The notes beneath the pieces were generated by a model. The model did not search any database. It was given only the letters and a program-made list of their open reading frames with translations, and had not been told where the DNA came from. Of a stretch of 64,000 nt of DNA, positions 55,722 through 57,116 are shown piece after piece. Every line of letters begins with the position of its first letter. The stretch's first letter is position 1. A program made the position numbers and the translations under genes. The DNA lies in assembly GCF_053078305.1 (NCBI RefSeq), contig NZ_CP166879.1; one strand, 5' to 3'.

Positions 55722-57116
55722 ATGTTAGTTAGTAAAAGCAACGGATTTAACGCTAGCGCAGTTTTGGGTAGTGGAAGTTATAATGAAAATAAATCTTCTA
55801 AACATATGGAGCTACTAGCTCATAGTATTGTAAAATTAATTTGTAAGGAAGCTGCATCAGCGACGTATCGCGGTGCTCTTGAAACTTTACAAAAAATGAT
55901 GTCTGAATGTAAATATAAAGAAGGCAACGCCTTTGTCATTATGGGAGCTGGAGGGCAATTAAAACGTATTAAATATGATGTTGATGAAAACAAATTAAAA
56001 ATATTCACCATATACTTTGATAATAATTACGAGGTAGTTACTGATGGTGAGCCTGACGTAGTATGTTTAAGCAAGCAGGTCTGGGAAAATCTTCTCATTA
56101 AACTAAAGCTGGATAACAAAGAAAACACGGCTTCTGAAGTTCATAAATCAGCGAATAAAGGTGAGGTTGAGCAATTAGTTGAATGCTCTAAGAGAAATGA
56201 AAAGACGCTTCTTGATAATATAAGTAAAAATACTACCATCTATAATATTTACAATAACCAACGAGCAACAAACATTACTACATCTTTATCTGAACCACCT
56301 GCACAAGGTAAAAGTAATGATGTAGATAAATTAAAACAAACGCAGTTTATCAACGCTAGTCAATTTGATATTAATGAGCTTCAGCAGAGTTCTGCTTTTT
56401 TAGCGTCAAAATATCACACCATAGATATTCAAGAAAAAACAGATGCGTTTGTGAATGAGTTCAAGGGGATATTATTTGATCAAAATGGAAGGTCTTCAGA
56501 GTTTCTACTTAATTTTTATGAGTGTTGCTATAAGTTTTTACCAAGAGCTCAGCCTCAAGATAAAATCGATAGCTATAATTCAGCACTGCAAGCTTTTTCC
56601 ATATTTTGTTCATCTACGTTGACACATAATAATATAGGCTTTGATTTCAAATTATTTCCAGAAGTCAAGCTGTCTGGAGAACATCTTGAAACGGTATTCA
56701 AATACAAAAATGGCGATGATGTCCGGGAGATAGCCAAAATTAACATTACTCTCCAAAAAGAAGAGGGTGGCTTATATAATCTACGTGGATTGGATTTTAA
56801 GGGATGCTTCTTTTCTGGACAGAACTTCAGTAACTATGATATTCAATATGTGAACTGGGGAACGTCATTGTTTGATGTTGATACTCCGTGTATTTTTAAT
56901 ACGCCTGCTAACCATGAGAGTTATGAAAAATCATTAAAACCTGTGAGCGAAAACGGTTTAAATGGAGTCTTATCTGATCGTAATAAAAAAATAAAAATGA
57001 TCACGGGTGTGGCACCATTCGATGATATTTTATTTATGGATGATGACTTTGATGATAACTCCCCTGAGGATGCTCCCATTGAGAATAGTCCTGTTGTGAA
57101 TAGTCCCCTTGTATGA
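55722..57116 (+). CDS. Hypothetical protein with short pentapeptide-repeat-like segment and acidic C-terminus; YpjC-like by position
   Basis: 464-aa ORF in strongly AT-rich DNA; segment YNLRG LDFKG CFFSG QNFSN YDIQY VNWGT SLFDV has 5-residue periodicity; preceded by aggaa about 8 bp upstream of the ATG. Confidence 0.65.
   Translation: MLVSKSNGFNASAVLGSGSYNENKSSKHMELLAHSIVKLICKEAASATYRGALETLQKMMSECKYKEGNAFVIMGAGGQLKRIKYDVDENKLKIFTIYFDNNYEVVTDGEPDVVCLSKQVWENLLIKLKLDNKENTASEVHKSANKGEVEQLVECSKRNEKTLLDNISKNTTIYNIYNNQRATNITTSLSEPPAQGKSNDVDKLKQTQFINASQFDINELQQSSAFLASKYHTIDIQEKTDAFVNEFKGILFDQNGRSSEFLLNFYECCYKFLPRAQPQDKIDSYNSALQAFSIFCSSTLTHNNIGFDFKLFPEVKLSGEHLETVFKYKNGDDVREIAKINITLQKEEGGLYNLRGLDFKGCFFSGQNFSNYDIQYVNWGTSLFDVDTPCIFNTPANHESYEKSLKPVSENGLNGVLSDRNKKIKMITGVAPFDDILFMDDDFDDNSPEDAPIENSPVVNSPLV

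Follow-up and report, generated by a model that had tools for sequence, protein, structure and literature searches.

What does a gene do that is confined to one bacterial species, lies in DNA much poorer in G and C than the neighboring core, and is kept intact in some strains and broken in others? The question is raised by ypjCB, an open reading frame (ORF) of E. coli found in a 64,000-nucleotide stretch of contig NZ_CP166879.1 (NCBI RefSeq assembly GCF_053078305.1). This whole stretch is called the window hereafter, and all coordinates refer to it. A preliminary description, made from the letters of the window, had presented the product as an AT-rich orphan protein with a pentapeptide-repeat-like segment and an acidic tail, possibly functional. 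As argued below, the window holds an intact copy, of a rare allele, belonging to a family that is already catalogued and found in E. coli only. Purifying selection is clear in the C-terminal domain of the protein, which contains a run of seven five-residue units that probably forms a short pentapeptide-type cap.

An intact member of a catalogued family

The reading frame, located as the preliminary description had it, and its ribosome-binding site are the following:

55722..57116, + strand: ypjCB coding sequence, ATG start, 464 codons plus stop (ORF list and family hidden Markov models)
55710..55714, + strand: Shine-Dalgarno sequence GAGGA, 7 nt before the ATG (read from the sequence)

At the base composition of the ORF, the chance of 464 codons without a stop is 2.6e-17. 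This value, the in-frame indels of the linker and an overall ratio of nonsynonymous to synonymous divergence (dN/dS) of 0.65 argue together that ypjCB is a real coding gene. Its identity and its genomic setting are certain. The product matches the NCBIfam family NF050179 (YpjCB) with 936.4 bits, for a curated cutoff of 650, residues 1-464 aligning with positions 1-465 of the 465-position profile. RefSeq WP_023308228.1, from E. coli strain A16, has the same sequence (100% identity), and over the whole 11.8-kb neighborhood the closest genome is that of strain D8 (98.9%). In Pfam, DUF5507 covers residues 1-160 (E-value 1.2e-86) and DUF5508 residues 218-464 (E 3.6e-153). The lengths of these two models, 160 and 263, equal those of the two fragments, ypjC and ypjB (b2650/b2649), into which a TAG at codon 161 splits the K-12 copy. 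This correspondence makes DUF5507 and DUF5508 look like the halves of one gene rather than independent domains, and their separation look like an artefact of the K-12 nonsense codon. The syntenic K-12 copy is indeed a pseudogene, as had been stated, and the copy of the window is intact. The word "orphan" can be kept in the taxonomic sense; as to novelty it has to be given up, the family being on record as YpjCB, DUF5507 and DUF5508. Searches of PDB sequences with the whole protein and with the full-length family profile gave no match at E <= 10. The sole match in PHROGs, phrog_30093, is an uncharacterized family that contains YpjCB itself and is uninformative.

YpjCB is a soluble protein without an enzymatic signature. 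It has a mass of about 52 kDa and is acidic overall (isoelectric point 5.1). Neither a signal peptide nor a membrane segment was detected, the highest Kyte-Doolittle mean over 19 residues being 0.87. No enzymatic family of Pfam, NCBIfam or PADLOC matches it, and none of the defence-system models of PADLOC-DB does so at E <= 1. The GC fraction along the ORF is 0.31-0.34; the gab/glaH core on its left has 0.55-0.60. On all these points (no signal peptide, no obvious enzymatic motif, AT-richness relative to the flanking core) the preliminary description was right. A 16-nt inverted repeat (55684-55699 and 57145-57160, 15/16 complementary) flanks the ORF, its arms lying 23 nt ahead of the start codon and 29 nt beyond the stop codon. 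It was considered as a meaningful feature and set aside, a rough estimate placing it at about chance level in 3.3 kb of AT-rich DNA.

YpjCB proteins are restricted to E. coli. An exhaustive phmmer scan, covering 1.84 billion representatives at 50% identity, yielded one full-length cluster plus fragments, and one marginal distant match that is weighed further below. In a search of 5.8 billion proteins, the named matches among the 120 best of 436 all come from E. coli, except for one from an unclassified Enterobacteriaceae isolate. When one genome per bacterial or archaeal species was scanned (GTDB representatives), two matches only were obtained, both on contaminant-like contigs: the 2.8-kb DEQI01000374.1, from a 'Planococcaceae' metagenome-assembled genome, and the 291-bp, low-coverage NZ_VHIM01000037.1, from an Arthrobacter agilis assembly. 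In both cases the public assembly seems to have been contaminated with E. coli. A tblastn search of 50,697 phage records gave no match, and the plasmid matches consist of three chromosome-sized records (4.8-4.9 Mb) and an 18% fragment on a 245-kb record. Within the species, ypjCB is found in 3077 of 5426 complete genomes and is absent from 43%.

A conserved pentapeptide-like run in the C-terminal domain

The most conserved stretch of YpjCB lies here:

56775..56879, + strand: pentapeptide-repeat-like run, residues 352-386, seven units, about two coils (periodicity, invariance, AlphaFold2)

In this PENTAPEPTIDE-like segment the units read YNLRG LDFKG CFFSG QNFSN YDIQY VNWGT SLFDV. Seven hydrophobic centers follow one another with a period of 5, D or N precedes five of the seven, and no run comparable in length and D/N count occurred in 20,000 shuffles of the protein (0/20000). 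The roughly seven units of the form x-[N/D]-[L/F/I/W]-x-x that had been noticed at first are therefore real, and they are consecutive. The sequence LYNLxGLDFKGCFFSGQNF is invariant across 16 aligned alleles and 64 distinct variants of the C-terminal domain.

Several comparisons bear on the fold of this run. With the isolated 63-residue segment, Pfam gives PF00805 at an independent E-value of 0.026 and PF13576 at 0.1, both below significance, and with full YpjCB no pentapeptide model is reported by Pfam at E <= 10. Among PDB sequences, Qnr 3pss alone is matched, by the segment as well as by the family profile (E 0.17 and 0.31, non-significant), with an alignment in repeat register at Qnr residues 16-50. 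The best AFDB50 fold match outside the family is a 'pentapeptide repeat-containing protein' (E 1.4e-4, TMq 0.42). AFDB matches to reverse-transcriptase and RNase H-like folds (TM 0.21) were treated as noise. The AlphaFold2 (AF2) model of residues 232-400 has a mean predicted local distance difference test score (pLDDT) of 73.4, a predicted template modelling score of 0.74, and a pLDDT of 68-81 in the run. It shows three helices and a three-strand meander, then isolated beta-bridges at residues 352/353, 358, 363/364, 372/373 and 378. These bridges recur with period 5 and have partners 20 residues apart, matching two stacked coils of a four-sided solenoid. A two-coil pentapeptide-type cap at residues 352-386 is the probable structure according to this model. 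The weak sequence and fold signals all point in the same direction, to pentapeptide-repeat proteins, and none is significant. Of the pentapeptide fold originally suggested there remain the period-5 bridges and the weak PF00805, Qnr and AFDB50 matches; what failed is significance in any of them, together with the PDB fold searches, in which neither a beta-helix nor a pentapeptide protein appeared.

The run is part of a modular protein, the other parts of which can be placed as follows:

55722..55805, + strand: N-terminal 28 residues, Ser/Asn-rich, with one acidic residue, variable between alleles (composition, dN/dS)
55806..56201, + strand: N-terminal domain, residues 29-160, part of DUF5507 (Pfam; low-confidence AF2 alpha/beta pattern)
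56415..56756, + strand: core of the C-terminal domain, residues 232-345, three helices and a three-strand beta meander, predicted (AF2)
57018..57113, + strand: acidic/aromatic tail, residues 433-464 (FDDILFMDDDFDD...), predicted disordered (charge, pLDDT)

The first 30 residues contain 7 Ser, 4 Asn and two acidic residues, one of them within the first 28, and have no hydrophobic core. At the other end, the Asp/Glu-rich tail announced in the preliminary description is present: residues 433-464 (FDDILFMDDDFDDNSPEDAPIENSPVVNSPLV) comprise 10 D/E and no K/R, for a net charge of -10. Its motif MDDDFDD is invariant among the aligned alleles, and the pLDDT of the tail is below 50. The tail looks like a short linear binding motif. 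It presumably resembles the C-terminal tip of the single-stranded DNA-binding protein SSB, and it contains an F-x-x-I core; we take both as leads only.

Selection, mosaic alleles and gene loss

Intact and broken copies were compared in 18 carriers sampled along the hit ranking, a choice that is spread by rank and not random. Nine are intact, encoding 449-492 residues, and nine are pseudogenes. The TAG at codon 161 is common to K-12, O104:H4, BA92, HE302 and 14EC017, and in the four further pseudogene strains the first stops fall at codons 50, 62, 119 and 205. With these five positions, independent inactivations number at least five. O157:H7 has an intact copy of 449 residues, and as a rough estimate an intact ypjCB would be carried by a quarter to a third of E. 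coli genomes. In the preliminary description, disruption of the ORF in most genomes was to speak against its reading. The outcome lies half way: the ORF is disrupted in 9 of the 18 carriers, and the gene is missing altogether from the 43% mentioned above.

Among the nine intact alleles the mean dN is 0.106 and the mean dS 0.160, the overall dN/dS of 0.65 having a bootstrap confidence interval (CI) of 0.52-0.82. Clear purifying selection is observed in the C-terminal domain only: for residues 232-395 dN/dS is 0.46 (CI 0.29-0.68) and no bootstrap replicate reaches 1, and within the repeat run the value is 0.34. Elsewhere, dN/dS is 0.90 in the N-terminal 28 residues (CI 0.37-2.27), 0.68 in the N-terminal domain, 0.80 in the linker and 0.64 in the tail, and in these four parts it is indistinguishable from 1.

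The gene is also about twofold more divergent than its surroundings, with a mean p-distance of 0.108 against 0.054 and 0.061 in the non-coding flanks. The excess sits in the initial 100 nt of the gene and at 56065-56549, where the nucleotide diversity is 0.10-0.16. The latter interval overlaps the following feature:

56085..56450, + strand: hypervariable center and linker, carrying a rare replacement cassette in the window (allele comparison, genome search)

Over 56085-56450 each of the 17 sampled alleles is 12-43% different from the window; on either side some of them are only 0-2% different. With RM9872-C1, for instance, the upstream sequence is identical, the first 100 nt of the gene differ by 18%, the center by 28-43%, and from about 56570 onward the difference is 0-2%. 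The alleles of ypjCB are mosaics. The central cassette, 56200-56420, occurs in only 57 of the 5426 complete genomes, and a sensitive blastn search found no counterpart to it in the other ~3000 carriers nor elsewhere in E. coli genomes. Because this cassette has no match in other carriers, the linker exists as non-homologous, in-frame alternatives. All length differences among intact alleles are multiples of three. The allele of NCTC 13148 has an in-frame tandem duplication of a PPNVCMEPRNSYENKID-coding unit in the linker, aligned to about 56330-56370 of the window.

The island and its neighbors

The gene is one of the contents of an AT-rich island, whose limits and main features are these:

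51947..62641, no strand: AT-rich genomic island, 10.7 kb, between glaH and ssrA (empty-site alignment and GC drop)
52084..54336, - strand: ygaQ-like gene of the alpha-amylase family, intact, 750 aa (ORF list; RefSeq annotation of D8)
54895..54969, + strand: tRNA gene ileY, anticodon CAT, annotated tRNA-Ile, decoding AUA (ARAGORN, Rfam, RefSeq label)
57477..57644, + strand: pseudogene fragment of the recombinase family, pinH-like (position transferred from the annotation of strain A16)
58052..62632, + strand: ypjA (EhaD), adhesin-like autotransporter gene, intact (ORF to 62632; start transferred from A16 and D8)
62793..63155, - strand: ssrA (tmRNA), right-hand neighbor of the island (ARAGORN; Rfam RF00023, 295.8 bits)

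The island is delimited by an empty-site genome, EH01-18-04-A, which aligns with the window through 51946 and resumes at 62642. In that genome the gap between glaH and ssrA is 680 bp, and 333 nt of unrelated sequence replace the 10.7 kb. The GC fraction falls from about 0.55 outside the island to 0.30-0.45 inside. The contents are the ygaQ-like amylase gene, ileY, ypjCB, the recombinase remnant, a small ORF and ypjA. Some strains lack the island as a single block. In 2560 of 5426 complete E. coli genomes the 11.8-kb stretch is found to an extent of 80% or more, others keep parts of it, and some retain just the first 1.8-3.9 kb of the island stretch. Altogether, horizontal acquisition of an AT-rich, E. 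coli-restricted gene is supported.

The tRNA gene lies 750 nt upstream of ypjCB and the recombinase fragment about 360 nt downstream, in agreement with the tRNA and mobile-element remnants first reported next to the ORF. The position of the fragment comes from A16, for which the 100% identity applies to the ypjCB ORF itself. In the sampled carriers the fragment is annotated with mostly 168 nt, and with 126-159 nt in a few. From ileY through ypjCB, the recombinase fragment and the small ORF to ypjA, the order is kept in 15 of 18 sampled records, plus D8. The exceptions are 2020N08-094, for which no tRNA is listed in the fetched stretch, and BA92 and 14EC017, where a tyrosine recombinase/integrase gene and a hypothetical gene stand upstream of ypjCB at the usual place of ileY. 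This arrangement suggests that a further element was inserted at ileY in BA92 and 14EC017.

All three large genes of the island (ygaQ-like, ypjCB and ypjA) are intact in the window. In many sampled strains ygaQ and ypjA are pseudogenes; the ygaQ-like gene is pseudogenized in K-12, O157:H7 and O104:H4, and in A16 despite its identical ypjCB.

As to RNA genes, the Rfam matches were the tRNA and the tmRNA only. The island genes are rich in the rare codon AUA, which occurs 19.4 times per 1000 codons in ypjCB, 22.6 times in the amylase-like gene and 10.8 times in ypjA, and the island itself encodes ileY, an AUA-reading tRNA. Elsewhere in the window, at 20251-20978, a tRNA gene cluster begins with tRNA-Ser(GCT) and continues with four genes for tRNA-Arg(ACG).

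Regulation and phenotype in K-12

What has been published on the locus concerns K-12. For the spacer between ileY and ypjC, a constitutive sigma-70 promoter is listed together with an HNS mark (PMC3946193). Hha binds the ypjC region with a 4.6-fold enrichment, and ypjC is induced 9-fold (PMC2408971). In a mixed commensal-pathogen biofilm, expression of ypjC rises 1.99-fold, and deletion of ypjC leads to more colonization by enteroaggregative E. coli (EAEC) 55989 (PMC3646849). The sequence TTATCA-18-TTTAAT, given as the constitutive promoter of ypjC by Shimada et al. (PMC3946193), occurs once in the window, at 55994-56023 on the - strand, antisense inside the ORF. No publication naming YpjCB, DUF5507 or DUF5508 was found, and nothing relevant was found under the b-numbers of ypjC and ypjB.

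What may YpjCB do?

In the reading that we favor, an old AT-rich island of 10.7 kb between glaH and ssrA carries ypjCB as cargo. With a promoter region listed as H-NS-bound and bound by Hha, the gene would be silenced and conditionally expressed. Its product is modular, with a Ser/Asn-rich variable N-terminus, an N-terminal domain, a disordered linker, a C-terminal domain and an acidic/aromatic disordered tail. The linker changes by in-frame cassette replacement, duplication and deletion. The C-terminal module, a short beta-solenoid followed by an acidic linear motif, would offer a binding surface rather than a catalyst, so that YpjCB may be imagined as a conditionally expressed accessory protein of the adaptor or decoy type. 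A niche-dependent benefit would then lead to retention of the gene in some lineages and to its decay in others. For the whole of this proposal, a predicted non-enzymatic accessory binding protein, silenced by H-NS and Hha and being lost in most lineages, we consider the chances evenly balanced.

A number of observations weigh against it. The full-length AF2 model had a pLDDT of 40 and was discarded. For the C-terminal domain, two of the five AF2 models are confident (pLDDT 73, 69, 55, 44 and 40), the other three being poor. The family alignment is shallow, all sequences being at least 72% identical. The binding module is postulated because no catalytic signature was seen. Frequent pseudogenes, and a dN/dS of 0.65-0.9 in the greater part of the protein, also fit a gene of little present function. 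Finally, the K-12 data concern a strain able to make only the 160-residue N-terminal fragment.

Another idea is that ypjCB has no present function, and would be a slowly decaying relic of the island, its open frame marking a lineage not yet hit and its run being vestigial. The 43% of genomes without the gene, the pseudogenes in half of the sampled carriers with at least five independent lesions, the dN/dS inseparable from 1 in N-terminus, linker and tail, and the frequent breakage of the neighbors ygaQ and ypjA all fit such a history. A purely functionless relic is nevertheless hard to square with nine sampled alleles that stay open over 449-492 codons at 33% GC and 7-17% nucleotide divergence, with indels all in frame, and with a dN/dS of 0.46 in the C-terminal domain, where no bootstrap replicate is at 1. 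Moreover, the run shows no change in 64 distinct variants, synonymous sites being variable (dS 0.115), and the K-12 deletion alters mixed-biofilm colonization (PMC3646849). We therefore regard the relic as possible but rather doubtful. The protein might instead be, or have been, a substrate of a type III secretion system, encoded by E. coli type III secretion system 2 (ETT2) or by the locus of enterocyte effacement (LEE), and act inside host cells. Its 28 N-terminal residues would be the signal, the solenoid and the acidic motif would bind a host protein, and the gene would decay where the secretion system decayed. The widespread attrition of ypjCB is similar to that reported for ETT2, and the type III effector PipB2 has a pentapeptide beta-helix. 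The N-terminus, Ser/Asn-rich with a single acidic residue, lacks both a signal peptide and a membrane segment and accommodates variation (dN/dS 0.9). The low-GC setting with island, tRNA and recombinase remnant, the promoter region listed as H-NS-bound and Hha-bound, the modular and mosaic alleles and the intact gene of O157:H7 can be read in the same way. Moreover, known effectors, NleL and SopA, have pentapeptide beta-helices (PMC3013003). However, Pfam, NCBIfam, the PDB and the search of representatives reveal no homology to an effector family, the island holds no secretion or chaperone genes, and a signal-like composition is a heuristic and not a test. Papers that name ypjC or ypjB do so neither in title nor in abstract, those consulted report no secretion, and intact alleles occur in strains whose type III secretion status is not established. 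As to the solenoid, about two coils compare poorly with about ten in NleL, whose helix spans some 200 residues (171-371) and precedes a HECT-like ligase (PMC3013003). The link to type III effectors is, like that to DNA mimicry, one of analogy only, and an effector role seems unlikely. A broader version would make YpjCB a so far unrecognized protein specific to E. coli that is secreted or interacts with the host, such as a substrate of ETT2 or LEE; it adds that the two-coil cap and the acidic/aromatic motif would bind a host or competitor target and that the N-terminal half and linker would be hypervariable through diversifying selection and cassette exchange. It would account for the divergence of the 5′ half, which exceeds that of the non-coding flanks two- to threefold; on the whole we hold it to be distinctly unlikely.

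Two further explanations turn on the nature of the run itself. It could make YpjCB a DNA mimic of the Qnr/MfpA type which, with its acidic tail, would act in the bacterial cytoplasm by binding gyrase or some other DNA enzyme. The segment and the family profile match no PDB sequence other than Qnr, and the tail has a net charge of -10; but the E-values of 0.17 and 0.31 are non-significant. DNA mimicry by Qnr and MfpA requires a long dimeric helix which is essentially the whole protein of 180-220 residues. In YpjCB the run amounts to two coils, some 35-40 residues out of 464, and a different fold is predicted for the remainder. At this length such a function is implausible, and the explanation is barely credible. 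Alternatively, the conserved segment might be what is left of a beta-sandwich similar to PA14, a domain of the carbohydrate-binding or adhesin type, rather than a pentapeptide coil. This idea comes from the only distant match among the 1.84 billion representatives, the four-fold PA14-repeat protein P0160 (E 6e-4), which is 37% identical over 60 residues that run from the final hairpin of a PA14 unit into the opening strand of the following one (FPEVKLSGEHLETVFKYKNGDDVREIAKINITLQ ... FKGCFFSGQNFSN). Yet this E-value sums four near-identical repeats of the target, PA14 is not reported by Pfam on YpjCB, about 90 residues are available for a domain of about 140, and fold searches return no PA14 fold. 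The period-5 pattern of the YpjCB segment is also absent from the PA14 motif. Given the summed E-value, the Pfam miss and the missing period, the similarity was set aside as probably a local chance or convergent match, and a PA14 origin as very improbable.

The locus has its interest in that ypjCB is among the E. coli genes that have neither relatives outside the species nor a solved structure. To the catalogued family the present analysis adds that DUF5507 and DUF5508 appear to be one gene split by a nonsense codon in K-12, that constraint is focused on a short, putative pentapeptide-like coil and an acidic motif, that the center of the gene is swapped as non-homologous in-frame cassettes, and that the gene travels on an island present or absent as a block. 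If YpjCB is secreted or binds a defined partner, it would be a species-specific factor in the adaptation of E. coli to its niches.

Comparison with known systems

The closest comparison is with the YpjCB family itself (NF050179), of which the protein of the window is a member from end to end, at the same locus and with the same neighbors. It departs from the K-12 gene, split at codon 161, in being intact, and from most members in its linker cassette, found in just 57 of 5426 genomes. With the effectors NleL (EspX7) and SopA it would share a low-GC E. coli island gene, an unstructured N-terminus, modularity and a pentapeptide-type element; unlike NleL, to which it has no detectable homology, it has no catalytic domain, and its run is far shorter than the NleL helix of about 200 residues. 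The likeness to the PA14 domain (PF07691) is limited to the 60-residue local similarity (37%) with the PA14-unit junction of P0160, and YpjCB differs from that domain in its lack of a Pfam match, in having too few residues and in its periodicity. As for the pentapeptide-repeat proteins (PF00805; Qnr, MfpA), YpjCB shares their x-[D/N]-[L/F/I/W]-x-x pattern over seven units. It stays below every significance threshold, has about two coils where they have eight to ten, carries its run inside a larger non-repeat domain, and in most of its units has no Ala/Cys-type residue at position i-2.

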